Assembly (NCBI GenBank): GCA_964396175.1
Contig: CAYNEK010000026.1
Location: forward strand, 37,361 to 58,047
Direction: 5' to 3'
Source: an uncultured Polyangiaceae bacterium
GTDB lineage: Bacteria; Myxococcota_A; Polyangia; Polyangiales; Polyangiaceae
Length of the DNA: 20,687 nucleotides
The notes below the pieces were generated by a model that saw nothing but the letters and a program-made list of their open reading frames with translations, made no database searches and was not told the DNA's origin. The number at the start of each line of letters is the position of its first letter. Positions within the stretch are counted from its first letter, which is position 1. Position numbers and translations under genes: made by a program. Shown here piece by piece: positions 309 to 19,895 of the stretch.

Positions 309-2546
309 GAAGACGCCGTCCGCGAGGATCTCGGCGATGTCGCGCTGTTGGATGTCTCCCTCCTTCTCCTGGCTCTTCAAGCCGTCGGAGAGCATGGTCA
401 TGCAGAAGGGGCAGCCGCTCGCGATCGTCTTCGCGCCGGTGTCGATGAGCTGGAGCGTCCGCTTCACGTTGACGCGATCCTTGTTCTGCTCCTCCATGTA
501 CATCTGGGCGCCGCCCGCGCCGCAGCAGAGCCCCTTGTTGCGGCTCCACCCCTCGACCTCGACGAGCTCGACGCCCGGCACTCGCCTCAAGACCTCGCGG
601 GGCGCCTCGTAGACGCCGTTGTGACGACCCAGGTAGCACGAGTCGTGGAAGACGATCTTCTCGCGCACGGCGTGCTTGGGCGTGAGCTTCCCGGCCGCGA
701 GCAGCTCGAGGAGATACTCCGAGTGGTGGACGACGTCGTACGAGCCACCGAAGTCGGCGTACTCGTTCTTCAGCGTGTTGTAGCCGTGGGGGCACGCCGT
801 CAGGATCTTGCGGAGGCCCTTCTCTTTGTAGCCGTTCAGGGTCGCGATGTTCTGCTCGGCGAGCGTCAGGAAGAGGTACTCGTTGCCCGCGCGGCGCGCT
901 GGGTCGCCGGTGCAGGTCTCCTCGCTCCCGAGCACGGCGAAGTCGACGCCCGCCTCCTTCAGGAGCTTCGCGACCGAGCGGGCGACCTTCTTCGCGCGGT
1001 CGTCGTAGCTCGCGGCGCAGCCGACCCAGTAGAGGATCTCTGCGTCGGGGTGGTCGGCGAGGGTCTTCAGGTCGAGCCCGTCGCTCCACGCGGTCCGGTC
1101 CATGCGCGAGAGGTTCCAGGGGTTGCCGTTCGTCTCCATGCCGTTGAAGGGCTTCTGGAGCTCGGCCGGGAATTCTCCCTTGATGGTGACGACGTTGCGC
1201 CGCATGGCGACGATCTTGTCGACGTAGCTGATCATCACGGGGCACTGCTCCTCGCACGCGCGGCAGGTCGTGCAGGCCCAGATGACGTCGGGGTGGATGA
1301 CGTTGCCGATGAGATCCGTCGGAGAGAGCGTGGGGCGCGCGGGGTACGCGGGGTCGTCGCCCTCCTCGGCGAGGCGGTCGCCCGACCAGTCCCCGCGTCC
1401 GAGCGCCGACTTCGTGCGGAGGGCCTCGTCGCTCTCCAGCATGAAGTTGCGCAGATCGATCGTAAACTGCTTGGGTGAGAGCATCTTGCCCGTCTTGTGC
1501 GCGGGGCAGTTGTCGCTGCAGCGACCGCACTCGGTGCAGGTGTAGAAGTCGAGGATCGCCTTCCACGTGAAGTGATCGGCGCGCGCGACGCCGACCGGGG
1601 CCTCGAGCGGATCGTCCTTCTCGCTCGCCGCGCCGACGATCTCCATCAGCTCATCGCTGGAGCTCGCCATCTTCGGGAGGTTCCCGTACGGCTCGAGGTT
1701 GCGGAAAAAGACGTTCGGGATGGCCGTGATGATGTGGAAGTGCTTCGAGTGAGGGAGCACGTTCAAGAAGACGAGCACGAGCGCGGCGTGCACCCAGAAG
1801 CCGAGGTGCGCGGCGAAGACGAGCGCGCCCGCGGGGAGCGCGGCGACGGCGAAGGCGACCAGGGAGCTTACCGGCGCGAACCAGTGGAAGTCGAGGTGCC
1901 CGACCGTGAGCGCCTCGGGGCCGAGGGGCGCGACGAGGGTCTGTGCGGCGCCGCACACGCCGACGAGCTCCCCGTAGCGCGCGTCGCAGCCGAGCGTCGG
2001 CCAGCGCGCGGCGAGCGCCATCATCGAGCCGTTGTAGAGGAGATCGCCGATCATCATCGCGAGGATGATCCCGAGGATGACGAGGCCCTCGGTCGAGAGG
2101 CTCATCCGGCGTTGGACGCGGATCTTGCGGAGGTAGATGAAGGTGCTCGCGCCGGCGATGACGAGGACGATGAACACGTCCTTCAGCAGCTCGTAGAGCC
2201 TGCCGACGAGCGTGTCGTGGCCGAGGAAGAAGAAGTTGAACGGCGCGTAGAACCCGCGGCCCCAGAGGATGAGCGTGTTGACGAGGAGGACGAGGAAGCC
2301 GAGGAAGATGAGGTGGTGCGCGAGGCCCGCGGTCCGGTAGTAGTGGAGCCGCTTCTGCCCGAGCGCGTACTCGATGACGCCCTCGATCCGCTCGGGGATG
2401 CGGTCCCACCGGACCTCGAAGCGCCCGACCGAGAGGAGCTCGAGCCGGCGCGCCATGCTCACGACGAACACGACGTGGAGCCCGATGATGAGGAGGCCCA
2501 TCGCGATGGGGTTCATGTCGCGGCGGGGTGTAGGTGCCCTTGGCAC
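276..2546 (-). CDS. Membrane-anchored Fe-S oxidoreductase. The N-terminal domain is polytopic and His-containing, like DsrM/HmeC/NarI di-heme cytochrome b. It is fused to an HdrD/GlpC/DsrK-like domain with two 4Fe-4S ferredoxin motifs and two CCG cysteine-rich domains. The track start at 2546 is a GTG; an in-frame ATG at 2516 (MNPIAMGLLIIGL...) is an equally plausible start.
   Basis: 756-aa ORF. Hydrophobic helices with conserved His (HVVFVV, HHLIFLGFLVLL, HLGFWVHAALVLVFL, HSKHFHI). CxxCxxCxxxCP twice (CTECGRCSDNCP; CTTCRACEEQCP). CCG domains (GSEETCTGDP...; LCCGAGGAQ...PFC). Confidence 0.85.
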   Translation of the reverse strand: MPRAPTPRRDMNPIAMGLLIIGLHVVFVVSMARRLELLSVGRFEVRWDRIPERIEGVIEYALGQKRLHYYRTAGLAHHLIFLGFLVLLVNTLILWGRGFYAPFNFFFLGHDTLVGRLYELLKDVFIVLVIAGASTFIYLRKIRVQRRMSLSTEGLVILGIILAMMIGDLLYNGSMMALAARWPTLGCDARYGELVGVCGAAQTLVAPLGPEALTVGHLDFHWFAPVSSLVAFAVAALPAGALVFAAHLGFWVHAALVLVFLNVLPHSKHFHIITAIPNVFFRNLEPYGNLPKMASSSDELMEIVGAASEKDDPLEAPVGVARADHFTWKAILDFYTCTECGRCSDNCPAHKTGKMLSPKQFTIDLRNFMLESDEALRTKSALGRGDWSGDRLAEEGDDPAYPARPTLSPTDLIGNVIHPDVIWACTTCRACEEQCPVMISYVDKIVAMRRNVVTIKGEFPAELQKPFNGMETNGNPWNLSRMDRTAWSDGLDLKTLADHPDAEILYWVGCAASYDDRAKKVARSVAKLLKEAGVDFAVLGSEETCTGDPARRAGNEYLFLTLAEQNIATLNGYKEKGLRKILTACPHGYNTLKNEYADFGGSYDVVHHSEYLLELLAAGKLTPKHAVREKIVFHDSCYLGRHNGVYEAPREVLRRVPGVELVEVEGWSRNKGLCCGAGGAQMYMEEQNKDRVNVKRTLQLIDTGAKTIASGCPFCMTMLSDGLKSQEKEGDIQQRDIAEILADGVFGPEAAVAAAE

Positions 2547-2746
2547 ACGGCGTCAACCCGCGGCGCGGGCCGAGGACGAGCCACGGAATCCCGCGAGGTT
2601 CGCGGCGACGCACCCCCCGTGGGGAAAGGGACGCGGAGCGTCACGCGCGCGCTCCGGGCGGCCAGCTCGTCGAGACGGCCGACCTCGCCCCCGCTCGCGT
2701 CCCTTGGTGCGACGGGGGCTCTCCTGTACCCTCGCCGGGACGCATC
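2547..2746. promoter_or_regulatory. Divergent intergenic region between the oxidoreductase (minus) and the Ser/Thr kinase (plus). Presumed bidirectional promoter region; no confident -35/-10 or -24/-12 elements identified.
   Basis: 200-bp non-coding gap between divergently oriented starts. Confidence 0.3.
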
Positions 2747-4696
2747 ATGACGATCTCCGATCCTCGGCTCCGGCAGCTCCGCGACGAGCTCGCGCGCTCG
2801 ACGGTGGACGGGACCAGCAGGGTCGTCTTCCACCTCCGGGAGCTGCTCGGCGAGGGAGGGCAGGGTTGGGTGTACCGCGCCAGCTACGACGACCCGGACG
2901 GTCCGCCGATGGTCGTGAAGCTGCTTCGCCCGGACGTCGTATCGAACGACGCGCTCGCCCGGTTCCTCCGCGAGGCGGAGGTGCTGAAGAAGCTGTCCAC
3001 CCTGGCCCCGTCCCCGAGCCTCATCCGCTTCTTCGATCACGGGATCCACCGGATCACGATGCCGGACCGAGAGGCATACTCGATGCCGTTCATCGCCCTC
3101 GAGTATGTGCAAGGCACGAACCTGCAGAAGATCCTGGCCGAGCAGCCCGGCAAGGGGCTCCCGGCGGGGCGCACAAGGAGGCTCTTGCGCCAGATCGTCC
3201 GCGCCGTCTCGATGGTGCACGGCGCGCAGATCGTCCACCGAGACATCAAGCCATCGAACATCCTCGTCACGACCGAGGCGGGCGTCGAGGTGGCGAAGCT
3301 CACCGATTTCGGGCTCGTCAAGCGCTACGATATCGATGTCCGCGGCACCTTGATGATGGCCGGCGCGAGCACCGGCTACGCGCCGCCGGAGCAGTTCGAG
3401 GCCGGGAACAAGCGCGTCTCGGCGCGCACGGACGTCTTCTCGCTCGCCGCGGTGACGTACGAGTGTCTGACGGCGAGCGCCGCGTTCCCCGTCGCCGCTG
3501 CCGAGAGCGGGCTCCTCGTGCTGTCTCGCATGCTCTCCGGGGAGCGCCCCACGCTCGCCGCGAGCGGCACCACGTTGGCGCCCGAGCTCGCGGGGCGCGC
3601 GGATCTGATCGCCGCCATCGACCGCGAGCTCACCCGCGCGCTCTCAGCCGATCCCGATCAGCGACACGCCACGGTCGAGGAGCTCTGGGCTGCCATCGAG
3701 GAGTCGCTCCGGCAGGCCGAGCGCCCGTTCGGGTCGACCGCGCGCCTCGCGGCGGGTCCCCGCTCGAAGGCCCCTGGATCAGCGCCGTCGGCGGCCGCCG
3801 TGGCCCCGGTGACCCGCGCGCCCGACGTGCGCGTCGTCAGCTCGAGCCTCTTGCCCGAGACGGCGCGCGCGATCGCCTTCGCGCCCGACGGCCACACTGC
3901 CTACGCGCTCGGTCGGACCGCGCTCTTCCGCTTCCGGGGCGGGGTCTGGGCCCACGTGGTGCTCCCCGCGGGCTTCGACACGGCGGCGCTCACGGGCCTG
4001 CTCGTCTCGCCCGCGGCGGAGGTCGTGCTCTTCGGGCAGCGCGGCGCGCTCTTCGGGCTCTCGCCAGACGGCTCGCTGCGCCCGTGGGCCGCGGCGGATC
4101 CCGATCTGTCCTGGGTCGGCGGCGTGGTCGAGCGGAGCGAGATCCTCCTCGTCGGGACGAGCGCGATCCGCCGGGTGCCCGTCGTGGGGATCCTCCGGCA
4201 GGGCGGATCGCTCTCGACGGCGACGGTCGAGGGCTCTTCGCGCCTCCTCGCCGCGACGCGGCTCGAGAGCGGAAACATCCTCGCGTGCGGAGAGGCGGGT
4301 GAGCTCGCGGTGCTCGGCGCCGGACCCGCGCGCGGCCTCCCGTGGGGCCGGACGGGGCACCTCTTCGCGCTCGCGAGGACCGACGACGGTGTGCACATCG
4401 TCGGCACTGGCGGCCACGCGCTCCTCGTCGCCCGCGATCTCGGCGTGCGGCTCGAGCCCGTCCAGACGACGCGCGACCTCTTCTGCGTGACGGCGGAGGG
4501 AGGCCAGGTGCTCGCCGGAGGCACCGAGGGTCGCCTCGTCCGACGCACCCCCTCGGGCTGGACCCGCGTCCCTTTGCCGAAGGAGGCGACGGGCACCGTC
4601 CGCGCCATCACGATCGGCGACACGCACTTCACCTGCGCGCACGACGATGGCCTCGTCGTCGCCGGGAGGCTGGACGCCCTCGCACAGCGGGCGTGA
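2747..4696 (+). CDS. Hanks-type (eukaryotic-like) Ser/Thr protein kinase with a roughly 330-aa C-terminal Gly/Ala/Val/Leu-rich, beta-rich repeat region, possibly a beta-propeller. Start chosen at ATG 2747 (MTISDPRLRQ...); the track ORF begins further upstream at 2534.
   Basis: Gly-loop GEGGQGWVY, VAIK-like MVVKLL, catalytic loop HRDIKPSNIL, DFG (TDFGLV), APE-like GYAPPEQ. The start sits about 25 aa before the G-loop. Confidence 0.85.
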   Translation: MTISDPRLRQLRDELARSTVDGTSRVVFHLRELLGEGGQGWVYRASYDDPDGPPMVVKLLRPDVVSNDALARFLREAEVLKKLSTLAPSPSLIRFFDHGIHRITMPDREAYSMPFIALEYVQGTNLQKILAEQPGKGLPAGRTRRLLRQIVRAVSMVHGAQIVHRDIKPSNILVTTEAGVEVAKLTDFGLVKRYDIDVRGTLMMAGASTGYAPPEQFEAGNKRVSARTDVFSLAAVTYECLTASAAFPVAAAESGLLVLSRMLSGERPTLAASGTTLAPELAGRADLIAAIDRELTRALSADPDQRHATVEELWAAIEESLRQAERPFGSTARLAAGPRSKAPGSAPSAAAVAPVTRAPDVRVVSSSLLPETARAIAFAPDGHTAYALGRTALFRFRGGVWAHVVLPAGFDTAALTGLLVSPAAEVVLFGQRGALFGLSPDGSLRPWAAADPDLSWVGGVVERSEILLVGTSAIRRVPVVGILRQGGSLSTATVEGSSRLLAATRLESGNILACGEAGELAVLGAGPARGLPWGRTGHLFALARTDDGVHIVGTGGHALLVARDLGVRLEPVQTTRDLFCVTAEGGQVLAGGTEGRLVRRTPSGWTRVPLPKEATGTVRAITIGDTHFTCAHDDGLVVAGRLDALAQRA

Positions 4697-4902
4697 GCCG
4701 CGGTCACCACGCCGCGACCCGCTCCAGGCCTCGTGGATCGGCGCGCTCCACCGACAGACGCCGCACGAGGACACGCGATCGTCGAGGTGCGCCGCGCTGC
4801 GCGCGCCACGAGGCTCGCCGAGCCGCTCCTGCCTCCCGCCCCATACGCTGTCCACCTGGGACGGAATGCCGAATTTGCTTCTCAGCGGACCCGAGGGAGG
4901 TC

Positions 4903-5364
4903 ATGAGAGCCGTAATGATGGGCGACCGCCTTCTCGCGTCGACAGCGGCTCTGGCGGCGTGTGCGGCGCTCGTGTCGCCGGGCGCGTCCCCCGCGCGGGA
5001 GCTCGAGGCGCGTCTCCGCGCGGCCGCCGACGAAGACCCGATGGGGACGATGGCGACGGCGCTGCTCCTCGGCGGCGCGATCTTCTTCGCCGCCGAGCGC
5101 GGGGAGAACCCCAAGGTCACCTCCTTCGCCGACGCGCTCTATTTCGTCTCCACGAGCATGAGCGTCGGCTACTCGGACATCTTCCCGCGCACCGAGGCGG
5201 GCAAGCTCCTCTCGACGGTCCTCGCGGCGCTCGGGCCCGCGCTGACGGCCCGCGCGCTCGCCGACGCCAAGGCCCCCACGCGCGAGGACGACCGCGACGC
5301 CGCCCTGCTCGCCAAGCTCGACGAGATCCTGGTCGCGCTGAAGGACAGGCCCCAAGCGCCATGA
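4903..5364 (+). CDS. Small (153 aa) KcsA-like single-pore cation channel subunit (2 TM plus pore helix). The selectivity filter reads SVGYSD rather than TVGYGD. The stop TGA (5362-5364) overlaps the next gene's ATG as ATGA.
   Basis: GGAGG 7 nt upstream of ATG 4903. TM1 MATALLLGGAIFFAAE, pore FADALYFVSTSMSVGYSDIFP, TM2 GKLLSTVLAALGPALTA. Confidence 0.75.
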   Translation: MRAVMMGDRLLASTAALAACAALVSPGASPARELEARLRAAADEDPMGTMATALLLGGAIFFAAERGENPKVTSFADALYFVSTSMSVGYSDIFPRTEAGKLLSTVLAALGPALTARALADAKAPTREDDRDAALLAKLDEILVALKDRPQAP

Positions 5365-6152
5365 CGGAGCTCCTCCGCCTGGCGACCACCTTCCCGACGG
5401 TGGTCTTCACGGTGCTCGTCGGCGTCGTCCTCGTCTACTGGGCGTTCGTCATGCTGGGCGCGCTCGAGCTCGACGCGCTCGGCGGCGCCCACCACGCGCA
5501 CCTCGGCGACGTGGGGCACGACCTCGGTGACGTGGGCCACGGGCTCTTGCACGGGGGCCACGACGTCGGCTGCGCCGCACACGGCGCCCTGGACGCCGGA
5601 CACGACGTCGGAGACGCGAGCGACGGGGACACGCACGGCGACCACGGAGGCCAGGCGGCGCACGCCGCACACAGCGCCGGGCTGCTCGAGGCGCTGCGTC
5701 TGCGCTCCGCGCCGGTCACCGTCGTCGCGAGCCTCGTCGTCGTCTTCGCGTGGCTCGCGTCCGCGCTCCTCTCGTCGTGGTTCGGCTCGCCCCTCTGGCT
5801 CGCCCGCGCCGCGATCTTCGCGGGCTCCTTCGTCTTTGGCGTCCTCGCGACGTCGGTCGCGGTCCGCCCGCTCGCGCGGCTCTTCGTCACGCGCAAGGCG
5901 CGCGGCAACGCAGATCTCGTGGGGAAGGTGTGCGTCGTGCGCACCGGCGAGGTGACCGAGAGCTTCGGCGAAGGGGTCCTCGACGAGGGCGGCGCCTCGC
6001 TCGTCCTCCGCATCCGCCTCTCGGAGGGCGAGAGGCTCGCGCGCGGCGAGGAGGCGCTCATCCTCGAGTGGGACGCGCGCCGCGAGGCGTTCTTGGTCGC
6101 GCCCTTCGGGGACGTCCTCGCGCGCTCGGAGCGGCGCCCACCCAAGCGCTGA
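5361..6152 (+). CDS. YqiJ/NfeD-like inner-membrane protein: N-terminal TM helix, a His/Asp/Gly-rich repetitive loop ((L)GDVGH(D/G) repeats), further TM helices, and a C-terminal soluble beta (OB-fold-like) domain. It is the typical partner of flotillin/SPFH proteins.
   Basis: MTELLRLATTFPTVVFTVLVGVVLVYWAFVML (TM); HHAHLGDVGHDLGDVGHGLLHGGHDVG...GHDVGD; TMs VTVVASLVVVFAWLASALL / AAIFAGSFVFGVLATSVAV; C-terminal GKVCVVRTGEVTESFGEGVLDEGGASLVLRIRL. Architecture matches E. coli YqiJ-type NfeD short homologues; position immediately upstream of a flotillin gene. Confidence 0.75.
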   Translation: MTELLRLATTFPTVVFTVLVGVVLVYWAFVMLGALELDALGGAHHAHLGDVGHDLGDVGHGLLHGGHDVGCAAHGALDAGHDVGDASDGDTHGDHGGQAAHAAHSAGLLEALRLRSAPVTVVASLVVVFAWLASALLSSWFGSPLWLARAAIFAGSFVFGVLATSVAVRPLARLFVTRKARGNADLVGKVCVVRTGEVTESFGEGVLDEGGASLVLRIRLSEGERLARGEEALILEWDARREAFLVAPFGDVLARSERRPPKR

Positions 6153-6322
6153 GCTCCCCTCGGGCCCCGGCCGAGCCGTCGACCACCCAGGCCACTTCGC
6201 TTAGATCGTCGCTGTCGTCCCCTGCTCCGCGCGAGCGCGGCGGCGATCGTGACGGGGCTCCAAAGTTCGCTTATGCCTACATCGTCCGCTCGCCTCTTCC
6301 ATCCTCGGGATCCTCTGCTGCC

Positions 6323-8194
6323 ATGCCCAACATCCTCCCCATTCTCGTCGTCGTGGGCGTCCTCGCCTTCGTGCTGCTCGGCGTCATCACGCTCGTCAGC
6401 CGGTTTTATCGGCAGGTCGACCAGGGCAAGGCGCTCATCATCAACACGCTCCGCTCCGAGCCGGTCGTCACCTTCACGGGGGCGGTCGTCTACCCGGTCA
6501 TCAACCGCGCCGAGGTGATGGACATGTCCGTCAAGATCATCGAGATCGATCGACGCGGGAAGGAGGGGCTCATCTGCAAGGACAACATCCGCGCCGACAT
6601 CAACGTCAACTTCTTCGTGCGGGTGAACAAGACCGAGGAGGACGTCCTCAAGGTCGCGCAGTCCATCGGCTGCCAGCGCGCCTCCGACCCGGCGACGCTC
6701 TCGTCGCTCTTCGCCGCGAAGTTCTCCGAGGCGCTGAAGACCGTCGGCAAGCACTTCGACTTCCAAGAGCTCTACAAGATGCGCGAGGAGTTCAAGGACC
6801 AGATCATCAAGGTGATCGGCAAGGATCTCAACGGGTACATCCTGGACGACGCGGCCATCGACTACCTCGAGCAGACGCCGCTCGAGTCGCTCGATCGCAA
6901 CAACATCATGGACGCCGAAGGCATCCGAAAGATCACGGATCTCACCGTCGTACAGAACCTCCAGACCAACGAGCTCCGCCAGAAGGAGCGCATGGAGACC
7001 GGCAGCCAGAACCTGAACGCCGACGAGGCGATCTTCCGTTTCGAGCAGCGGCGCGCCGAGGCGGAGGCCAAGAAGAACAAGGAGATCGCCGTCGCTCAGG
7101 CCCGCGAGGAGAACGAGGGCGCGCGCATCGCGAGCGAGGAGCAGAAGAAGACCGCGCTCGTCTACGAGAAGAACCAGGAGGAGGCGCTCGTCGCCGCCGA
7201 GACGAAGACGCGCGGCGTCGCCATCGCCCAGAAGAACCGCGAGCGCGAGATCGGCGTCGAGGAGGAGCGCGTGCAGAAGGCCCGGCAGCTGGAGGCCATC
7301 CAGCGTGAGCGCGAGGTCGCCCTCGTCAGCATCGCCAAGGAGAAGGACGTCGAGGTCGAGAAGAAGGCCATCGCCGACGTCATCCGCGCCCGCATCGCCG
7401 TCGACAAGACCGTCGCGACCGAGGAGGAGAGCATCAAGGATCTCCGCACCGTCGCCCAGGCGACCCGCGAGAAGGACGTCATCCGCCTCGCCGCCGAGGC
7501 CCGCGCCGAGGAGATCCGCGTCCGCACCGTGAAGTCCGCCGAGGCCGAGGAAGAGGCCGCGAAGTTCGAGGCGCGGAAGAGGGTCTTGCTCGCGGACGCC
7601 GAGCTCGAGACCGCCGACAAGACCGCGCGGGCGAAGCAGCGGCTCGCCGAGGGCATCCAGGCCGAAGAGGCCGCCTCCGGGCTCGCGAAGGCCCGCGTCC
7701 GCGAGGCCGAGGCGGTCGCGATCGAGAAGACCGGGCAGGCAGAGGCCTCCGCCCTCCGCGAGCGCATGGTCGCCGAGGCCGAGGGCCTCACCCAGAAGGC
7801 CAACGCGATGCACGCGCTCGACGCGGCCGGCCGCGGCCACGAGGAGTTCCGCCTCCAGATCGAGAAGGAGAAGGCGGTCGATCTCCGCGCGCTCGACGTG
7901 AAGAAGGAGCTCGCGGTCGCTCAGGCCGAGGTGCTCGGCAAGACCCTCGGCAACGCGAAGATCCAGATCATGGGTGGGGACGGGCAGTTCCTCGAGCGCT
8001 TCGTGAAGGCCGTGTCGGTCGGCCAGTCGATCGACGCCTTCGTCGACGAGAGCAAGACCGTGCAGGGGATGCTCGCCGAGGTCGTGAAGGAGGGCTCCCC
8101 CGCCGCGAAGAAGGTCGCCGAGGTCCTGCGCACCGTCGCCGAGGCCGATCCGAAGCTCCGCGCGAAGCTCGGTGAGACCCCCGCCGATCGATGA
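6323..8194 (+). CDS. Flotillin family (SPFH/Band-7, YqiK/FloT-like) protein, 623 aa: N-terminal TM anchor, SPFH domain, long Ala/Glu/Lys/Arg-rich coiled-coil flotillin region. Start chosen at ATG 6323 (MPNILPILVVVGVLAFVLL...). Its stop overlaps the next gene's start as ATGA (8191-8194).
   Basis: TM MPNILPILVVVGVLAFVLLGVITLV. SPFH core KALIINTLRSEPVVTFTGAVVYPVINRAEVMDMSVKIIEIDRRGKEGLICKDNIRADINVNFFVRVNK. EA-rich heptad region from about aa 240 to 520. C-terminal KIQIMGGDGQFLERF. Confidence 0.88.
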   Translation: MPNILPILVVVGVLAFVLLGVITLVSRFYRQVDQGKALIINTLRSEPVVTFTGAVVYPVINRAEVMDMSVKIIEIDRRGKEGLICKDNIRADINVNFFVRVNKTEEDVLKVAQSIGCQRASDPATLSSLFAAKFSEALKTVGKHFDFQELYKMREEFKDQIIKVIGKDLNGYILDDAAIDYLEQTPLESLDRNNIMDAEGIRKITDLTVVQNLQTNELRQKERMETGSQNLNADEAIFRFEQRRAEAEAKKNKEIAVAQAREENEGARIASEEQKKTALVYEKNQEEALVAAETKTRGVAIAQKNREREIGVEEERVQKARQLEAIQREREVALVSIAKEKDVEVEKKAIADVIRARIAVDKTVATEEESIKDLRTVAQATREKDVIRLAAEARAEEIRVRTVKSAEAEEEAAKFEARKRVLLADAELETADKTARAKQRLAEGIQAEEAASGLAKARVREAEAVAIEKTGQAEASALRERMVAEAEGLTQKANAMHALDAAGRGHEEFRLQIEKEKAVDLRALDVKKELAVAQAEVLGKTLGNAKIQIMGGDGQFLERFVKAVSVGQSIDAFVDESKTVQGMLAEVVKEGSPAAKKVAEVLRTVAEADPKLRAKLGETPADR

Positions 8195-11100
8195 CCGACG
8201 AGGCGAAGCCCGCCGAGCCCGCCCAGAAGGCCGCGTCGGACAGCGGGGGAGGCTCGGTCCTGCGCCGTCGGCGAGAGGCCGCCGCGCGCGAGGTGCTCGA
8301 GAAGGCCCGGGCGCTCGACGAGAAGCGGAAGGGCCTCTTCGGCGGCCAGGAGCAGAAGTTGCTCGGCGTCACGCGGACGCGCACGGAGCAAAACGCCGTG
8401 CCGCGAGACATGGCGCGGGTCGGCGAGACGATCCTCGTCGGGTACGAGGTCTTCCTCGGTCTGTCACGCGAGATCGACGTCGCCCAGGTCTTCGGGCTGA
8501 GCCAGCTCCTCCAGGCGGACGGCGGCTTCGAGCTGTCCCCGGTGCCCATCGCGTCGCACGCGCCTTACCTCGCCGACGAGGCCTTCGTCCGCGACTTCAC
8601 GAGCACCTTCCGCTACGCGACGGGCGCGCGGGTCACGGAGCTTCGCCGCACGGACGAGCGGCTCCTCGTCGTCGTGCGGTCCGGTCGAGACGACGCGGAT
8701 CGCAAGGTCTTCCGCTGGGTCATCGACGGCAAGGGCAACGTCAAGTACCTGGACGCGCGCGGAGAGGAGGATCTCACTCCGCCAGCGGCGCACCCCTTCG
8801 CGTGGAAGCAGACGACGCGCGACGATCAGGTCGGCGGGAAGTTCCCGCACATCGCGATCGACGACACGCTCTTCGTCGAGACGATCGGCGGCGACCTCAC
8901 CGTCAAGATCGAGAACAACACCACGACCGGGCTCGGCGTCTACTCGGAGCCCGTCGACGACCCGAACCAGACGCTCGATGACGCGGACATCGCGTGGGCC
9001 AAGGTGGGCGGGCTCTACGTCGTCAAGCTGCGGCCCTTCCGCGAGACGGTCACGCGCTACCTCGTCTTCGATCCCATCACGAGGTCCATCCGCCGCGTCG
9101 ACGCGCTCGGCGTCGCGTGCCTGCCGCTCCCGGAGGACCAGGGGCTCATCTTCCCGGGCGGGCTCGCCCTGCGCGGGGTCGGGGCCAAGGTGCTCGACGG
9201 CGTCCCGTCGGATCTCATCCCCATCGCGCGCGTCGCGTCGCCCAACGGCGAGGACGTGCTCTTCGCCTTCTTCCGCGAGAAGGACGGGCTCTACCTCCTC
9301 CTCCCGTACAACGCGCTCCGCAAAGAGCTCGCGCCAGCGATCGTCTGTCACGGCTACACGCTCCTCGACGACGGGACGCTCCTCTCCTTCCGCGCAGGGG
9401 ACGAGCCGGCGCGCGTCCACCCCGTGCAGGTCTGGCAGACGCCCTTCGGCTCGGCGGACGCCGAGGCCGATCGACCGCTCACCGGGAGCTTCCTCGAGAA
9501 GATCGGCAACCGCGATCTCGTGCGCGGCCTCGCCGACGCGCTCTCGGTCGGCAAGGCGGGGCTCGTGTGCGACACGCGCGAGCGGCTCCTCGAGCTGGTC
9601 CGCGCCGTCGGGCGCGCCGCCGACTCCCACCACTGGCTCGGCCACGCCGAGGCCGGGGATCTGCTCTCGTCGCTCGTCGCGCTCCGGAGCGCCGCCGAGG
9701 CCGCGATGGACGAGATCGAGCGCGATCTCGCCCTCGCGCGTGAGGCCGAGGCAGAGACCGCGAAGATTGAGGCGGCGATCGAGGCCGGCCTCCACGACCA
9801 CGCACCCGAAGCGCTCCGCGATCTCGACGCGGTCACCAAGGCGCTCGTCTTCGTGCGCTCCCAGCGCGGCAAGCTCGTCGCGCTCGGCGAGCGGCGCGGC
9901 GCGTCCAAGGAGCGCCTCGTCGCGGCGCTCGAGCGGCTGAAGGAGCACGAGGCCGGCGTCAGCAAGACGGCGGCGAGCTTCCTCGCCGAGGGCGAGGCGT
10001 TCGCCCCGCTCTTGAAGGGTTTCGACGCGCTCGAGCGCGAGGCCCAGGGGGTGACGACCGTGCTCGGGCTCGCGCCGCTCCGCGAGGCGCTCGATCGCGG
10101 CGCCGAGGGGCTCGTCGCGTTGCAAGAGCTGTCGGCGGGGCTCGCCGAGGACGACGCGCCGCTGCGGACCAAGATCGCCCAGGGGCTCGGCCACGCGCTC
10201 GCCGCGAAGAACCGCGCCGACGCCGTGCTCACGGGGCGGCGCCGCGAGCTAGCGATGGCGGAGGGGCGCGCCGAGCTCGCCGCCGAGCTCTCGCTCTTTG
10301 GACAAAACGCCGCGGCCGAGGTCGCCCAAGCCGACAGCCCCGAGGCCTGCGACGCCGCGATCGCCCGGCTCGGCACGACGCTCGCGACGATCGAGGCTCG
10401 CTTCGCCGAGCTCGTCGATCTGCTCCCCGGCGTCGAGGAGAAGCGCGAGGAGGCCGTCCGCGCCCTCTCCGACAAGAAGAAGCGGCTCGTCGAGGAGCGC
10501 GCGCGTCGCGCCGAGGCGCTCTTCGAGGCGGCGTCGCGCCTGTCGAAGGTGGTGCTCGAGAAGGCGAAGTCGCTCCCCGAGGCCGACGCCCTGCACGGCT
10601 TCTTCGCCGCCGATCCGATGGTCGAGAAGCTCCGCGGCCAGATCCGCGCGCTCGCCGCGCTGGGTGATGGCGTGCGGTCGGCGGAGCTCGAGACGCGGCT
10701 CGCGGAGGCGAAGGAGGAGGCGTTCCGCGCGCTCCGTGATCGGGCGGATCTCTTCGAGGACGGGCAGCGGCTCATCCGGCTCGGGGCGGCGCGCTTCCTC
10801 GTGCACGAGGGCAAGCCCGAGCTGGTGCTCGTCCCGCGCGGCGATGGGGTCTCGGCGCACGTGCTCGGCACCGATCTCTACGTCCCGGTGCGTGACGAGG
10901 CGCTCGTCCGCGAGCGCGCGCTCTTCGCGTGGGAGGTGCCGTCCGAGACGCCCACGATGGCGCGCGCGGCGTTCCTTGCGGGCTCGCTCCTGCTCGCGCG
11001 AGGAATCCTCACGCCCGTCGACGACTCCGCCATCGACGATCTCGTCCGCGAGGCGGCGATGGCGCGGCTCGACCAAGGCTACGATCGCGGCGTCCACGAC

Positions 11101-13587
11101 GTCGACGCGGCCGCGATCTTCCGCGCGCTCGTCGGCGTCGCGAAGCTCGGCGGGCGGCTCCTCCACCGGCCCGACGTCCGCGCCTTCGCGTGCATGTTCT
11201 TCGCGGGCCTCGCGCCCGAGGCGCGCGAGCCGTGGGTGGTGCGCAGCCGGAGCGCAGGACGGCTCACGCGCACCTACGGCGCCTACGACGCCGAAGAGCA
11301 GCTCGCGAGGGAGCTCTCGGGCGCGCTCCGTGAGGCCGCGGCGTCGCTCGGGTTCGATCCTTCGCTCGCCGAGGAGGCCGCCACGTACCTCGTGGTCGAG
11401 CTCGGTCTCGACGAGCTTCGCTTCGTCCTCTCTGGAGAGGCCTCGGCGCTCTCGCAGGCGCTCCTCGCCGATCTCGACACGCGCGGGGCGCGACGCGCCT
11501 TCGAGGCGGATCTCCGCGCGCTCGACGCGCGCCCGAAGGATCGCCTCGAGGTGGCCGAGAGCCACGTGCGCGCCTTCCTCGCGGCGCGAGAGGACTCCGA
11601 GCACACGCGCTGGGCGAAGGAGGCGGCCGTGTCGCTCGCGACGCCGCGCCTGTCTCGCGCCGTCTCGTCCGCGCGGACCGCCTTCGCCGTCGAGGGGTTG
11701 CTCTCGCTCCACCCGACCATCGAGGGGCGCGCGCTGCGCGGCTACGCGGACGAGCTGCTCGCCGAGGTGCGGCGCCACGAGCGCGACGATCTCCCGAGGT
11801 TCCGCGCCTTCGCCGCGAAGAAGGGCGAGGTGCTGGCGAGCGAGGAGAAGCGGCTCGGGACCAAGGCGTTCGCGCCGCGGGTGCTCTCGACCTTCGTCCG
11901 CAACCAGCTCGTCGACGAGGTCTACCTCCCGCTCATCGGGAAGAACCTCGCGAAGCAGATCGGCGCCGTGGGCGACGGGGCGCGCACCGATCGCATGGGC
12001 CTGCTCATGCTGCTCTCGCCGCCCGGGTACGGCAAGACGACGCTCCTCGAGTACGTCGCCGACCGGCTCGGTCTCGTCTTCGTCAAGGCGAACGGCCCGT
12101 CCCTCTCGTCGAAGACGACCTCGCTCGATCCCGCCGCGGCGCCCGATCGCACCGCGCGCGAGGAGGTGCAGAAGATCGCGCTCGCCCTCGAGATGGGGAA
12201 CAACGTGATGCTCTGCCTCGACGACATCCAGCACACGAGCCCCGAGCTGCTCCAGCGCTTCGTGTCGCTCTGCGACGGGCAGCGGCGCATCGAGGGCGTC
12301 TTCGACGGCGAGCCGCGGACCTGGGACTTGCGCGGCAAGCGCTTCTGCGTGGTGATGGCCGGCAACCCCTACACCGAGTCGGGCGAGCGCTTCCGCGTGC
12401 CCGACATGCTGGCCAACCGCGCCGACACCTACAACCTCGGCGACGTGCTCGAGGGGCGCCGCGAGGTCTTCGAGCGCTCGTACATCGAGAACGCGCTCGC
12501 CTCGCACCCGCTCCTCGCGCCGCTCACCGGCCGCACGCGCGGCGATCTCGACAGGCTGCTCCGGCGCGCGGCGGGCGAGGAGATCGCGGTGTCGGCCTTC
12601 GATCATGCCTTCGGCGAGGCCGAGGTGGCCGAGCTCGAGGCGCTCCTCCGGCACATGATCCGCGTCGAGAAGACGCTCCTCATGGTGAACGAGGCGTACG
12701 TGCGCTCGGCGTCGCAGGCGGACGCGTACCGGACGAGCCCGCCCTTCAAGCTCCAGGGCAGCTACCGCAACATGGCGAAGATCGCGGACAAGCTCTCGCC
12801 CGCCATGACGGCCGAGGAGGTCGAGCGGGTGATCGACGATCACTACGCGAGCGAGTCCCAGACGCTCACGCAGAGCGCGGAGGAGAACCTGCTCGCCCTC
12901 CGCGAGCTGCGCGGGCGCCTCGACGAGAAGGGCAAGGCGCGGCTCGAGGCGATCCGGGCGGCCTTCGTGCGGCGTGTGCGTCAGGGCGGCGCCGAGGCCG
13001 ATCCGGCGACGCGCGTGACCGGCGGGCTCGAGGGGATCGAGACGGAGCTCGCGAGCCTCGGCAAGACACTGACGACGCTCGCGCAGCCCAAGGAGGCTCC
13101 TCCCGCGGCGCCCGCCACCGACGGCGCGCTGAACCTCGCGATGAGGGAGCTCGCCGTCTTGGAGCAGCTCGTCCAGAACATGCCCCCGCCCGCGACCGCC
13201 GCCGCCAGCGACCCGCGAATCGACGAGATCTCCGCGGCGATCCGGCGGGTCGAGGCGTCGTTCTTCACACTGCCGCGCGGCGAGACGACGGACATCGAGC
13301 TCGGCCCCGCGACGGAGTCGAACTTTTACGACGGCATGGGCGGGGTCTTCGTGGACGGCGGGGTCTTCGTCGCGACGTACGCGAAGGCGCCCGCGGTGGG
13401 GGCGCGGGTGTCCTTGCGGCTGGCCTTCCCGGACGGCGTCGTCGAGGCGAGCGGGATCGTCGCGTTCGTGCGCGAGATGCTCGCGGGGGGTGGGATCCCT
13501 GGGTACGGGGTGCGGCTCGCCGAGACGCCGGAGCTTCGAGCGCGGGTCGAGCACTTCACGAGGCTCCGAGCGCCCGACGTCGTGTGA
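8191..13587 (+). CDS. Giant (1798 aa) multidomain protein, translationally coupled to the flotillin gene. It has an N-terminal roughly 450-aa globular region of unknown function and extended Ala/Glu/Leu/Arg-rich coiled coils (about aa 480-1000). A MoxR-class AAA+ ATPase module sits at about aa 1260-1420 (Walker A SPPGYGKTT, Walker B VMLCLDD, sensor region FCVVMAGNPYTESGERFRVPDMLANRA). A PilZ-like domain (TIGR02266-type) forms the C-terminus.
   Basis: Uninterrupted ORF with strong GC3 bias. P-loop at nt about 12019-12045; Walker B at about 12214-12235. The NPxxExG...LPDxLxxRx signature resembles MoxR/AAA_3-AAA_5. The C-terminus has FYDGMGGVFVDGGVFV...GARVSLRLAFPDGVVEASGIVAFV...GYGVRL, like PilZ beta-barrel strands ending in a G-hydrophobic-G motif. 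Confidence 0.8.
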   Translation: MTDEAKPAEPAQKAASDSGGGSVLRRRREAAAREVLEKARALDEKRKGLFGGQEQKLLGVTRTRTEQNAVPRDMARVGETILVGYEVFLGLSREIDVAQVFGLSQLLQADGGFELSPVPIASHAPYLADEAFVRDFTSTFRYATGARVTELRRTDERLLVVVRSGRDDADRKVFRWVIDGKGNVKYLDARGEEDLTPPAAHPFAWKQTTRDDQVGGKFPHIAIDDTLFVETIGGDLTVKIENNTTTGLGVYSEPVDDPNQTLDDADIAWAKVGGLYVVKLRPFRETVTRYLVFDPITRSIRRVDALGVACLPLPEDQGLIFPGGLALRGVGAKVLDGVPSDLIPIARVASPNGEDVLFAFFREKDGLYLLLPYNALRKELAPAIVCHGYTLLDDGTLLSFRAGDEPARVHPVQVWQTPFGSADAEADRPLTGSFLEKIGNRDLVRGLADALSVGKAGLVCDTRERLLELVRAVGRAADSHHWLGHAEAGDLLSSLVALRSAAEAAMDEIERDLALAREAEAETAKIEAAIEAGLHDHAPEALRDLDAVTKALVFVRSQRGKLVALGERRGASKERLVAALERLKEHEAGVSKTAASFLAEGEAFAPLLKGFDALEREAQGVTTVLGLAPLREALDRGAEGLVALQELSAGLAEDDAPLRTKIAQGLGHALAAKNRADAVLTGRRRELAMAEGRAELAAELSLFGQNAAAEVAQADSPEACDAAIARLGTTLATIEARFAELVDLLPGVEEKREEAVRALSDKKKRLVEERARRAEALFEAASRLSKVVLEKAKSLPEADALHGFFAADPMVEKLRGQIRALAALGDGVRSAELETRLAEAKEEAFRALRDRADLFEDGQRLIRLGAARFLVHEGKPELVLVPRGDGVSAHVLGTDLYVPVRDEALVRERALFAWEVPSETPTMARAAFLAGSLLLARGILTPVDDSAIDDLVREAAMARLDQGYDRGVHDVDAAAIFRALVGVAKLGGRLLHRPDVRAFACMFFAGLAPEAREPWVVRSRSAGRLTRTYGAYDAEEQLARELSGALREAAASLGFDPSLAEEAATYLVVELGLDELRFVLSGEASALSQALLADLDTRGARRAFEADLRALDARPKDRLEVAESHVRAFLAAREDSEHTRWAKEAAVSLATPRLSRAVSSARTAFAVEGLLSLHPTIEGRALRGYADELLAEVRRHERDDLPRFRAFAAKKGEVLASEEKRLGTKAFAPRVLSTFVRNQLVDEVYLPLIGKNLAKQIGAVGDGARTDRMGLLMLLSPPGYGKTTLLEYVADRLGLVFVKANGPSLSSKTTSLDPAAAPDRTAREEVQKIALALEMGNNVMLCLDDIQHTSPELLQRFVSLCDGQRRIEGVFDGEPRTWDLRGKRFCVVMAGNPYTESGERFRVPDMLANRADTYNLGDVLEGRREVFERSYIENALASHPLLAPLTGRTRGDLDRLLRRAAGEEIAVSAFDHAFGEAEVAELEALLRHMIRVEKTLLMVNEAYVRSASQADAYRTSPPFKLQGSYRNMAKIADKLSPAMTAEEVERVIDDHYASESQTLTQSAEENLLALRELRGRLDEKGKARLEAIRAAFVRRVRQGGAEADPATRVTGGLEGIETELASLGKTLTTLAQPKEAPPAAPATDGALNLAMRELAVLEQLVQNMPPPATAAASDPRIDEISAAIRRVEASFFTLPRGETTDIELGPATESNFYDGMGGVFVDGGVFVATYAKAPAVGARVSLRLAFPDGVVEASGIVAFVREMLAGGGIPGYGVRLAETPELRARVEHFTRLRAPDVV

Positions 13588-13608
13588 GCGGAGGGGTCGA
13601 GCCAGCTC

Positions 13609-13651
13609 GGCGACGCGAGCGCCCCTCGACGCAGCGTCTCGCGGCGTCGCC
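13609..13651. terminator. Possible stem-loop in the convergent intergenic region: ggcgacgc (13609-13616) pairs with gcgtcgcc (13644-13651), enclosing a smaller cgacgc/gcgtcg hairpin. No U-tract. It could act as a bidirectional terminator for the giant gene and the histidine kinase gene.
   Basis: Inverted repeats read directly in 13588-13860; GC-rich, no downstream T run. Confidence 0.25.
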
Positions 13652-13860
13652 CCTCGTGCGGACGCCCAGGCTCGACGCTGGGGACGCGCGCGGCGATCTG
13701 GCTGGAAGGCGGTCGATCCGGTCGATCGCGAGATCCCAGCCTCGAGTCCGGTGACGCAGGGGGGGCGCGCCTTGGCCGGGGCCGAGCGCCGCCTCTCGCG
13801 CGGACTTCCGGCACGGAGACGCGTCTCGCTCGGTTCGGATCGCTCGACCGACCGGCGCCG

Positions 13861-15978
13861 CTACGGTGTCTGCGCCGTCACGTCCGCCGTCACCACCCCC
13901 TCCGGTCGTGGCGTCGCCTCACCCTCCTCACACGCCGGCAACACCACGCGGAAGCTCGAGCCGCGATCGAGCTGGGTCGTCACCTCGATCGCCCCCCCAG
14001 CCGCCTCCACGATCCGCTGCGAGATCGCGAGACCGAGCCCCGTGCCGCGGGGCTTCGTCGTGAAAAAGGGCATAAAGAGGCTCTTCTCGACGGACGGCGC
14101 CATCCCGGGCCCCTCGTCCGTCACCGCGATCTCGACCGACGCCCGTCCCGCCTGCTCCCCGAAGGCGCGCGACAGGACCCGCCCGCGCGACGAGATGGTC
14201 ACCATCCCGCGACCTCCCATCGCCTGCTGCGCGTTCTGCACGAGGTTCAAGATCACCTGGCGGAGCTTCTCGGGATCGATGCGCACCATGGGCAAGTCAT
14301 CGGCAAGATCGGCCGTGACCTCGATGCCCGCGAGGTCGGGCGTGAGGATCTGCAGCGTGCGACGAAGGACGCCGTTCGCGTCGATGGGTGGGGACGGGCC
14401 GGCGGGCGGACGCGCGTAGTCGAGGACGTTCGTGACGACGGTGTTCAGCCGATCGACCTCTTCGAGGATGACGCCGAGCAGATCCTTCGTCCCGAGGTCG
14501 AGGGGCTTGCCCTCCTCGGGATCGGCGAGCAGCTCCGCCGCGCCCTTGATCGCGCCGAGCGGGTTCTTGATCTCGTGCGCGAGGCCCGCGGAGAGCTGCC
14601 CGAGCGCCGCCAGACGATCCTTGATCTTGAGGCGGACGAACGCGCGCGAGTTTTCGAGCGCCACCGTGAGCTGCGCGGCGAGCGCGTCGAGCAAGCCGAC
14701 GTCCTCCGGCGAGAACGCGTCGCGGACGCGCACGTCGGCGATGACCCACAGCCCGACCGGCTCGCGCGGATCTCCGAGCGTGAAGATCACGCCCTCGGCG
14801 AGCGGTCCGAGCGTGCCGGCCGCCGCGAGGATCCCTGCGACCGCCGCCTCCCCACGCTCGTCACGCTCGCGCAGCACCTCGTCGAGGACGACGGGCCCTC
14901 GAGCCCGCGCCCGCTCGAACAGCGGCGCGAGGGCCGCGATCTCGACGAGCCGGGGCGGCTCGCACCCCGCCGCGAGGCTGAGATCGAAGGTGACGCCGTC
15001 GGGCGCGCGGAGGTAGAGCGCGGCCCCGGTGATCCGCCGCGACGCGGTGAGGCCCACCGTGACGATCGTCGCGATCTGGTCCACCTCGACCGCGCGCGCG
15101 AGCCGCCCGCGCACGTCGTGGGCCGTCTGCTCGAGATCGAAGCGCTCGCGGAAGAAGGTCCGATGGATCTGCTCCTCGACCCTCTGCCGCATCGGCTCGA
15201 AGAGGACGAGCACGACGACCGCCGCGAGGATGGCGTTCAGGTACATCGTCGAGAAGCGCCCGATGACCGTGACGCAGAGGTAGAAGATCCCCGCGAGCAA
15301 GAAGGCGAGCAGCGTCGCGACGACGATGCGCCCGAAGAGCTCGTAGAGGCCGAGGAGCCGCTCCTCGATGAGCGCCTGCGCGATCGCGAACAGGAAGATC
15401 ACCGACAGGGCCGATCCCACCGGCGGCAGCTCCGCGCCGATGAACCACAAGAACTCGGCGAGGCTCGTCCCGAGCGCGAGCGCGCCCGTCGTCACCAGGT
15501 ACTGGACGCGGCGCTTGATGGCCCGCGACGTCGAGCGCTGCCCTCGACGTGCAAGCGCGTAGAGCCCCGCCGCGAAGAACCCGCCGACATACGCGTACAC
15601 GATCCCACGCGCCCAGCCCTGCCCGTGCCAGTCCGAGAGCACGAGCAGCGTGACCGGGATCGCGATGAACATCGCCGCACGTCGCAGCCGGGGTGGCACG
15701 CTGCGGGGCGTCGGGAGGATCGCCTCGAAGAGCTCGAGCGACAGGATCGGCAAGAAGACCGACAGGATCGCCGTGAAGCGCGCCCAGATGCTCGCCTGGA
15801 AGAAGCCATAGAGCGCCTGCGCCGAGTACCAGAGCGCGAGATCTGCAGCGAAGAGCGAGAAGACGACGTGCGACCGGCGCGACCGCGCACGGAGCAGCAC
15901 CGCCCCCGCGATGGCGAGCGCGAGCGCGGCGCAGAGGACGAGGGTTCTCTTGCGGACGTCGGAGCCGAAGTCGACCAC
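13861..15978 (-). CDS. Sensor histidine kinase, 705 aa: N-terminal polytopic membrane domain (about 8 TM), GAF-like domain, HisKA dimerisation/phosphoacceptor domain, and HATPase_c. The start is probably GTG at 15978.
   Basis: H-box LAHEIKNPLGAIKGAAELL; N-box LNLVQNAQQA; G1 DEGPGM; G2 GTGLGLAIS. Hydrophobic N-terminus (LVLCAALALAIAGAVLL, FIAIPVTLLVL, IVVATLLAFLLAGIFYL etc.). Confidence 0.88.
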   Translation of the reverse strand: MVDFGSDVRKRTLVLCAALALAIAGAVLLRARSRRSHVVFSLFAADLALWYSAQALYGFFQASIWARFTAILSVFLPILSLELFEAILPTPRSVPPRLRRAAMFIAIPVTLLVLSDWHGQGWARGIVYAYVGGFFAAGLYALARRGQRSTSRAIKRRVQYLVTTGALALGTSLAEFLWFIGAELPPVGSALSVIFLFAIAQALIEERLLGLYELFGRIVVATLLAFLLAGIFYLCVTVIGRFSTMYLNAILAAVVVLVLFEPMRQRVEEQIHRTFFRERFDLEQTAHDVRGRLARAVEVDQIATIVTVGLTASRRITGAALYLRAPDGVTFDLSLAAGCEPPRLVEIAALAPLFERARARGPVVLDEVLRERDERGEAAVAGILAAAGTLGPLAEGVIFTLGDPREPVGLWVIADVRVRDAFSPEDVGLLDALAAQLTVALENSRAFVRLKIKDRLAALGQLSAGLAHEIKNPLGAIKGAAELLADPEEGKPLDLGTKDLLGVILEEVDRLNTVVTNVLDYARPPAGPSPPIDANGVLRRTLQILTPDLAGIEVTADLADDLPMVRIDPEKLRQVILNLVQNAQQAMGGRGMVTISSRGRVLSRAFGEQAGRASVEIAVTDEGPGMAPSVEKSLFMPFFTTKPRGTGLGLAISQRIVEAAGGAIEVTTQLDRGSSFRVVLPACEEGEATPRPEGVVTADVTAQTP

Positions 15979-16358: not shown

Positions 16359-16359
<1 letters not shown>
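15997..16359 (-). CDS. Small (120 aa) Pro/Ala/Asp-rich lipoprotein with a lipobox signal peptide (MRLAGPLLVLLALLVGGC) and an internal duplicated KPEPDPW motif. Its ATG overlaps the stop of the upstream EBP gene (TGATG), and it ends 19 nt before the histidine kinase start.
   Basis: Lipobox L-V-G-G-C after a hydrophobic h-region and an N-terminal Arg. GGAGG about 10 nt upstream of the ATG, inside the EBP 3' end. The track ORF 15997..16971 is in this frame, but only the last 120 codons are non-overlapping and credible. Confidence 0.6.

Positions 16360-19872
<3,513 letters not shown>

Positions 19873-19895
<23 letters not shown>

Follow-up and report, generated by a model that had tools for sequence, protein, structure and literature searches.

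Four co-directional genes were analyzed in a stretch of 20,687 nucleotides (nt) from an uncultured Polyangiaceae bacterium (GenBank assembly GCA_964396175.1, contig CAYNEK010000026.1, positions 37,361 to 58,047 of the forward strand). This whole stretch is referred to here as the window. The genes, numbered 1 to 4, are predicted to encode, in this order, a channel-like protein, a membrane protein resembling YqiJ/NfeD, a flotillin of the YqiK type and a giant ATPase with a DUF3686 domain (the giant protein), and the last three correspond to a gene triad that recurs widely in bacteria. When reading frames were picked by third-position GC in the window, which contains about 72 % G+C, the following features were obtained (protein lengths in amino acids, aa).

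4903..5364, + strand: gene 1, putative channel-like protein, 153 aa
5361..6152, + strand: gene 2, putative YqiJ/NfeD-like protein, 263 aa
6153..6322: intergenic gap, gene 2 to gene 3, 170 nt (stop codon at 6150-6152, next ATG at 6323)
6323..8194, + strand: gene 3, putative YqiK-type flotillin, 623 aa
8191..13587, + strand: gene 4, putative giant DUF3686 ATPase, 1798 aa

All four coding frames are real; third-position GC was 0.87-0.94 in those of the flotillin and the giant protein. The same products of 153, 263, 623 and 1798 aa were found in independent gene calls on three metagenomic contigs carrying an identical locus. An earlier reading of this DNA made without database searches (the sequence-only reading) had described four co-directional genes with ATGA start/stop overlaps at 5361-5364 (genes 1/2) and 8191-8194 (genes 3/4) and a single gap of 170 nt, and this gene structure was found to be correct. 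A GGAGG-type ribosome-binding site lies 5 nt 5' of the ATG of gene 1 (4903). In the gap between genes 2 and 3 (6153-6322), the length of which differs between orthologous loci, no promoter, terminator or Rfam match was found. A promoter and terminator scan of the intergenic regions gave nothing informative, and an Rfam search of the whole window did not find RNA families. The four genes form a genuine operon, one translationally coupled cluster.

A 29-sequence alignment was used to scan one genome per species (185,579 species), and a relative of gene 4 was found to be encoded in at least 585 pattern-matched stretches. From these, 80 loci were kept for the comparison of synteny, covering five phyla (Myxococcota, Actinomycetota, Gamma-/Betaproteobacteria, Planctomycetota and Acidobacteriota). 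A flotillin gene lies directly 5' of the giant gene in 76 of the 80 loci, and three of the four loci without one have less than 100 nt of upstream DNA. The gap between the two genes is 150 nt or shorter in 64 loci, and the exact 4-nt overlap is present in 13. A YqiJ-like gene precedes the flotillin gene in the window and in 68-71 of the 80 related loci. Linkage of the flotillin and giant genes at 76 of 80 loci, where start and stop codons often overlap, is not incidental. Homologues of the giant protein are thus not randomly placed with respect to flotillin and NfeD-like genes, and the coupling that the sequence-only reading had seen in the window extends to its relatives. The YqiJ-like/flotillin/giant triad is a widespread bacterial module with strongly non-random linkage.

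In 11-12 proteobacterial loci the gene order is DUF2170 (CesT/Tir; E-value 2.5e-50), PspA_IM30 (E-value 2e-49), sometimes a small open reading frame (ORF), then YqiJ-like gene, flotillin and giant gene. The proteins of this full form share 38-47 % identity with those of the window. A phospholipase D (PLD)/HKD hydrolase gene (PLDc_2, E-value 1.9e-31) follows 3' of the giant gene in about nine of these 11-12 PspA loci. In Gamma- and Betaproteobacteria, the giant gene is directly followed by that of a single-HKD PLD-family protein at L062 (15185-15874) and also at L061, L064, L065, L070, L073, L078 and L080.

Among close Polyangia relatives, the flanking genes are wholly different and the four genes are still together. 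On the Polyangia contig of P0110 (JGI 3300050046), an insertion of 5.7 kb parts the channel/YqiJ-like pair from the flotillin/giant pair. This insertion (genes 3226-8887) holds five genes: two unannotated ORFs, a caspase-like peptidase C14, an ECF-type sigma factor (extracytoplasmic function) and a Kelch beta-propeller protein. Other departures were observed singly. At L007, which has a PilZ-bearing giant homologue, 6.3 kb lie between flotillin (1317-3608) and giant gene (9971-15754). At L056 (Labilithrix sp.; PilZ-bearing giant gene 9935-15724), flotillin was not found within 10 kb upstream, and this giant gene is possibly a second paralogue. In one Polyangia relative (L085/L086, 19744-19902), the giant gene is followed at a distance of about 3 kb by a gene for a ClpB-type disaggregase, which is probably coincidental.

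The sequence-only reading had considered the system undescribed. This did not hold for its core, as an operon of CesT/Tir-PspA, YqiJ, band-7/flotillin and beta-propeller-AAA+ genes was reported by Ravi et al. 2024 (mSystems 9:e00847-23, PMC11237479; preprint 2020), with a phospholipase D hydrolase added in some Proteobacteria. The same authors described abbreviated operons without PspA as 'more widely distributed', tied the module by gene context to the PspA (phage-shock/ESCRT-III-like) envelope-stress system, and called the control of assembly unknown for PspA homologues without an associated AAA ATPase (PMC11237479). The YqiJ-like protein, the flotillin and the DUF3686 beta-propeller AAA+ protein are common to that operon and the window, and the full proteobacterial form was recovered independently here. 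The window differs in having no CesT/Tir, PspA or PLD gene, and in having a channel gene on the 5' side and a PilZ-fold tail on the ATPase; the text of Ravi et al. 2024 (PMC11237479) mentions neither PilZ, nor an ion channel in the operon, nor Myxococcota. The core module is therefore already published, computationally defined and associated with the phage-shock system, and the Polyangia channel gene and PilZ-fold tail are the new part.

Direct Pfam and NCBIfam scans of the window proteins (Band_7, Flot, NfeD, YqiJ and PilZ models) gave nothing even at an E-value of 10, and orthologue profiles were used instead. In the case of gene 2, no Pfam or NCBIfam match was found, and Pfam matches none of 23 family members either. 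When the profile of these 23 sequences was aligned to E. coli YqiJ, hhalign returned 92.8 % and an E-value of 4.1e-7 over 139 columns, collinear over transmembrane segment (TM) 2, TM3 and the C-terminal domain. Gene 2 has three hydrophobic segments and a C-terminal beta (OB-like) domain. The relationship to YqiJ is distant, since Pfam is silent on all 23 members. These results support the assignment of gene 2, first suggested by the sequence-only reading, as a YqiJ/NfeD-like membrane partner of flotillin.

Between TM1 and TM2, gene 2 encodes a low-complexity loop rich in His, Asp and Gly (aa ~38-105, window 5470-5680; HHAHLGDVGHDLGDVGHGLLHGGHDVG...DGDTHGDHGG). The loop is long in Polyangia and Labilithrix, whereas in Actinomycetota and Proteobacteria it is short or missing; in E. 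coli YqiJ, a short stretch with His corresponds to it. Metal ions could be bound by this loop. In eight Nonomuraea loci (L032, L034, L036, L041, L042, L045, L048 and L071), extra ORFs were observed about 1 kb 5' of the YqiJ-like gene. They group with the YqiJ-like family (as duplicates in cluster 3 that overlap cluster 30), the longer ORF having no Pfam match, which suggests a second YqiJ-like paralogue just 5' of the triad.

Gene 3 itself has no Pfam match, Band_7 included, and nothing was found for it in the PDB, either with the sequence alone or as a profile. Its family contains more than 7900 homologues, some of which (orthologues with 58-70 % identity) carry PF01145, and many are named YqiK by JGI. 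When the orthologue profile was compared with E. coli YqiK, hhalign returned 99.5 %, an E-value of 3.4e-22 and 32 % identity across the SPFH region (YqiK 22-215). A single TM or hydrophobic segment is present at residues 1-30, and the C-terminal region is long, helical and rich in Glu, Ala, Lys and Arg. An AlphaFold2 (AF2) model built from 19 close homologues showed long helices at residues ~233-544 with low confidence (mean predicted local distance difference test, pLDDT, 57). With the SPFH region below a pLDDT of 50, the model was too poor for use. The evidence from profiles supports gene 3 as a YqiK-type flotillin (SPFH/band-7) with an N-terminal anchor, and the flotillin assignment of the sequence-only reading was retained.

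The flotillin gene (window 6300-8100) has a G+C content of 0.64-0.65 compared with about 0.72 in its neighbours, and a strongly positive AT skew (up to +0.39). This composition probably reflects the coding of a Lys/Glu/Ala-rich coiled coil and not foreign origin, which is disfavoured because third-position GC is still 0.91-0.98 there.

DUF3686 is a small family, for which 1.84 billion proteins contained 608 representatives (50 %-identity clusters); its full-length relatives measure 1550-2036 aa. Gene 4 combines an N-terminal DUF3686 with a C-terminal AAA+ domain of the P-loop type. Pfam matched DUF3686 (PF12458) with an E-value of 8.3e-152 (profile positions 3-448 of 448), DUF7902 (PF25472) with 3.7e-13 and AAA with 1.5e-5; the matches to AAA, AAA_22 and AAA_5 are weak. 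No TM segment was found in gene 4, indicating a soluble protein. The domains are arranged as follows.

8296..9633, + strand: DUF3686 domain, N-terminal beta-propeller, aa 36-481, with a helical bundle following to about aa 560
9994..10248, + strand: DUF7902 helical segment, aa 602-686, within a long helical middle region
11893..12510, + strand: AAA+ ATPase domain, aa ~1235-1440
13309..13554, + strand: PilZ-fold domain, aa ~1707-1788, the last ~85 residues of gene 4

The DUF3686 domain was identified as a beta-propeller by AF2 (pLDDT 90) and fold searches. In the ATPase domain, Walker A (SPPGYGKTT, aa 1276-1284) is invariant among 29 diverse homologues, as is the DD of Walker B (LDDIQH, aa 1344-1348, window 12220-12240), where DE is usual. 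N1392 (MAGNPYT) and R1410 (LANRAD) are conserved in the same homologues as candidate sensor-1 and arginine-finger residues. The sequence-only reading had placed this protein in the MoxR class. Its AAA+ domain is borne out and its MoxR character is not, as no AAA_3 match was found and MoxR is not among the PDB matches listed. The nearest of these, obtained with both the single sequence and the profile, are Rix7/NVL, VAT, p97/Cdc48, AFG2 and NSF (E-values 5e-7 to 1e-4), and the alignment to them takes in the segment immediately N-terminal to Walker A. Matches to RuvB are weak and cover the Walker A region only. No VWA-domain partner was found in the window or among the conserved neighbour clusters. 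On these alignments, the predicted AAA+ domain of gene 4 is closest to the classical Cdc48/Rix7/NSF clade.

The C-terminal domain matched NCBIfam TIGR02266 with an E-value of 7.7e-11 (42 bits, under the cutoff of 68.7 bits), and this model matches all six orthologues of the domain (best E-value 2.5e-15). When the PilZ-like profile was searched against the PDB, the Xanthomonas type IV fimbriae assembly protein PilZ (3dsg, 3cnr and 4f48) was found with E-values of about 1e-6. Pfam PilZ (PF07238) shows weak or faint precomputed matches on two orthologues and was not found on gene 4 itself. The best sequence matches of the tail are thus Xanthomonas PilZ (XAC1133-type) and myxobacterial TIGR02266 proteins, with which it shares the core pattern GGxFVxT ... 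G ... lPgg ... GfGvrF; it differs from Xanthomonas PilZ in being fused to a 1700-aa ATPase, whereas the Xanthomonas protein is stand-alone. The PilZ-like C-terminus noted from the sequence is therefore well founded.

Control by cyclic di-GMP (c-di-GMP) through this domain, which the same reading had proposed, is not borne out. In the six-orthologue alignment the RxxxR motif is missing, only one Arg being conserved ahead of the first strand, and the DxSxxG motif is degenerate (D-V-V-x-x-G-G; V-F-V-D-G-G in the window), Ser being missing in all six and Asp in the window protein. No match was found when the profile was compared by hhalign with the c-di-GMP-binding PilZ domain of YcgR. The XAC1133-type Xanthomonas PilZ reportedly does not bind c-di-GMP and is said to serve FimX and the PilB ATPase as an adaptor. 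The PilZ-fold tail is more likely to be a protein-protein adaptor than a c-di-GMP sensor. The domain is present in six of the 80 loci and in one of 68 full-length cluster representatives, all from Polyangia/Labilithrix members, and the Kofleriaceae loci have the channel gene and not this domain.

Gene 1 matched Pfam Ion_trans_2 (PF07885) at residues 50-121 with an E-value of 2.2e-12 and 47.1 bits (cutoff 22.5), in agreement with the pore protein of the K+-channel family that had been read from the sequence. Its pore helix, filter and inner-helix region fit this model above the Pfam threshold, as do those of KcsA-type two-TM K+ channels. However, the filter differs from the TVGYGD of KcsA-type channels: it is SVGYSD in the window, L005 and L006 and SVGYDN in four Kofleriaceae loci, and all seven orthologues carry one of these two sequences in place of T(V/I)GYG. 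K+ selectivity of gene 1 is therefore not to be assumed. Also unlike KcsA-type channels, its TM helices are short and Ala/Gly-rich, and an RCK or other ligand domain is absent. Gene 1 is thus predicted to be a two-TM pore protein of the K+-channel family with a non-canonical filter. A lipoprotein signal (LAAC) at the N-terminus was considered and rejected, as the Cys is not conserved in the orthologues.

A hidden Markov model (HMM) search found the channel gene in seven of the 80 loci, all of them Polyangiaceae, Labilithrix or Kofleriaceae, and in five of the seven it lies on the opposite strand. An apparent count of 27 loci (cluster 8 of an all-against-all clustering) was rejected as an artefact of over-extended ORFs merged with the flotillin N-terminus. 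On close Polyangia contigs with unrelated flanks, the channel gene is conserved, co-directional and overlapping the YqiJ-like gene, and its neighbourhood is retained, even inverted, in Labilithrix and Kofleriaceae. It is a real but lineage-specific fourth gene, accessory and not core. Among the HMM checks that the sequence-only reading had called for, Ion_trans_2, AAA_5 (weakly) and TIGR02266 (below its cutoff) gave matches, SPFH and YqiJ were reached by profile-profile comparison only, and AAA_3 and, on the window protein, Pfam PilZ gave none.

The locus was then compared with better known systems. With E. coli yqiJK and B. subtilis yuaFG (floT) it shares a three-TM protein with a C-terminal beta domain followed by an N-terminally anchored flotillin, but the window proteins are very divergent, with the Pfam Band_7, Flot, NfeD and YqiJ models silent. 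In addition, no giant ATPase lies 3' of E. coli yqiK, where the sibD/ibsD RNA-toxin pair is found instead. Flotillin faces the cytoplasm, whereas HflK/C is periplasmic. HflK/C encloses the AAA+ protease FtsH, and in both systems an SPFH scaffold is paired, genetically or physically, with an AAA+ ATPase having sequence features of the classical clade. Gene 4 differs from FtsH in being soluble, in lacking a protease domain, in having a beta-propeller and in lacking an aromatic residue at the pore-loop-aligned position. With ESCRT-III/Vps4 and PspA/Vipp1 (IM30), the likeness is that proteobacterial relatives place a PspA_IM30 gene in one operon with the DUF3686 AAA+ ATPase, and that the gene 4 ATPase resembles the Cdc48/Vps4-type clade in sequence. 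SPFH proteins form membrane-attached cages, at times with NfeD partners, and in B. subtilis an SPFH protein is reported to bring PspA to the membrane (PMC8581546). The partner of ESCRT-III in archaea and eukaryotes is the AAA+ ATPase Vps4 (PMC11237479).

It is very likely that the locus belongs to the published operon family. We also consider it fairly probable that it is the Polyangia version of the published triad, acting by ATP-driven remodelling at a flotillin scaffold in membrane stress. The mechanism itself, in which the flotillin/YqiJ-like scaffold is remodelled or cleared by the giant ATPase, is put forward tentatively, with a little less than even confidence. In this scheme, flotillin, held by its N-terminal TM segment, would oligomerise on the cytoplasmic face of the inner membrane, and the YqiJ-like protein would bind it through the C-terminal beta domain, as in known SPFH-NfeD complexes. 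The giant ATPase would be made in a fixed ratio with flotillin, would dock on this scaffold via its propeller or helical regions, and would spend ATP to remodel, disassemble or clear proteins held there. The ATPase may act on the scaffold itself, on damaged membrane proteins, or on PspA-type polymers whose genes lie elsewhere in the genome. HflK/C with FtsH and ESCRT-III with Vps4 are proposed as parallels. In Polyangia, the channel-like protein would probably be a client or effector for ion flux in membrane stress, and the PilZ-fold tail a probable protein adaptor.

Several points weigh against remodelling at a flotillin scaffold. The physical contact between giant protein and flotillin is inferred from gene coupling only, no PspA gene was found within the 20.7-kb window, and the literature searched contained no experimental study of any module member. 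The pore loop of Cdc48/VAT (SKYYG) aligns with SSKTTS (aa 1303-1312; GHxVxS in the family consensus), so that an aromatic residue is absent at this position, and Walker B has DD and not DE. A classical threading-unfoldase mechanism is therefore uncertain, and substrate threading by the gene 4 ATPase may be other than classical. The channel gene is missing from 73 of the 80 loci, and whatever role the channel has can therefore not be a general one. A bolder version, in which the DUF3686 ATPase is the missing ATP-driven remodeller (Vps4- or FtsH-like) of flotillin cages and/or PspA/ESCRT-III polymers, to which Polyangia added a captured pore effector or client and a non-c-di-GMP PilZ adaptor, is considered unlikely.

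Three other explanations were weighed. The sequence-only reading had placed a K+ channel at the centre of a microdomain, with the scaffold built around it, the giant ATPase gating or remodelling it and c-di-GMP acting through the PilZ domain. The overlap of channel and YqiJ-like genes, seen in the window and in close relatives from Polyangia whose flanks are unrelated, would fit this, as would the neighbourhood kept, even inverted, in Labilithrix and Kofleriaceae and the genuine PilZ fold. Animal ion channels are, moreover, regulated by SPFH proteins (stomatin/MEC-2 and podocin). However, only seven of 80 loci have the channel, five of these on the opposite strand, and only six of 80 loci and one of 68 representatives have the PilZ-like domain. 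The triad therefore works without either, and Kofleriaceae have the channel without the PilZ domain. As the filter is not TVGYG, the RxxxR motif, the Ser of DxSxxG and similarity to YcgR are all absent, and the nearest solved relative is a Xanthomonas PilZ that reportedly does not bind c-di-GMP, we regard an organisation around the channel as quite improbable.

An anti-phage or abortive-infection system, in which the ATPase senses infection and the channel or PLD hydrolase is a membrane or nucleic-acid effector, would account for the patchy spread across phyla (at least 585 stretches in the genomes of 185,579 species), the PLD/HKD hydrolase of proteobacterial versions and the caspase-like peptidase inserted within the cluster of one relative. 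Large ATPases with repeat domains are also common in defence systems. Nevertheless, PADLOC gave no significant match for the four proteins (best mad8, E-value 0.0067, on the P-loop of the giant protein only), mobile-element or defence-island genes do not flank the locus here or in its relatives, and the constant partners (PspA, CesT/Tir, flotillin and YqiJ) are membrane-maintenance proteins; an anti-phage role is judged very improbable. Least credible by far is a DNA-repair ATPase with incidental flotillin adjacency, for which only the label of PF12458 ('ATPase involved in DNA repair') and the weak P-loop matches to RuvB speak. The RuvB matches are restricted to the Walker A region, the domain bearing the label has a beta-propeller fold, and nuclease, helicase or DNA-binding domains were not found. 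In addition, the giant gene is linked to flotillin in 76 of 80 loci, often with overlapping start and stop codons.

The remainder of the window contains the following flanking genes.

276-2546, - strand: Fe-S/CCG oxidoreductase
~2747-4696, + strand: Ser/Thr kinase, upstream
13861-15978, - strand: histidine kinase, downstream
16359-19895, - strand: TPR-sigma54 activator, downstream
19873-20631, - strand: glycosyltransferase

The upstream Ser/Thr kinase and the downstream histidine kinase and sigma-54 activator were rejected as operon members, as their adjacency to the triad is not conserved. Because a TPR-sigma54 activator lies downstream, and because the classic psp regulator PspF also belongs to the sigma-54 activators, a sigma-54 promoter was considered. 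It was rejected: matches were not above chance and none lies 5' of the operon. Sigma-54 activators are numerous in myxobacterial genomes. In Labilithrix luteola (L006, 4865-5845), a homologue of the sigma-54 activator adjoins the channel gene as well.

A new category of system is not opened by this locus, since the operon had been published before, as had its general interpretation. Broadly distributed and tightly coupled, the triad is a concrete candidate for ATP-dependent control of SPFH/ESCRT-III-like scaffolds, with a bearing on how PspA/Vipp1 and flotillin assemblies are disassembled or regulated, and it is present in tractable genera (Pseudomonas, Streptomyces, Corallococcus and Myxococcus). 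With the channel-like protein as a candidate client or effector and the PilZ fold as a candidate adaptor domain, the Polyangia variant offers two further possible experimental handles on this module.

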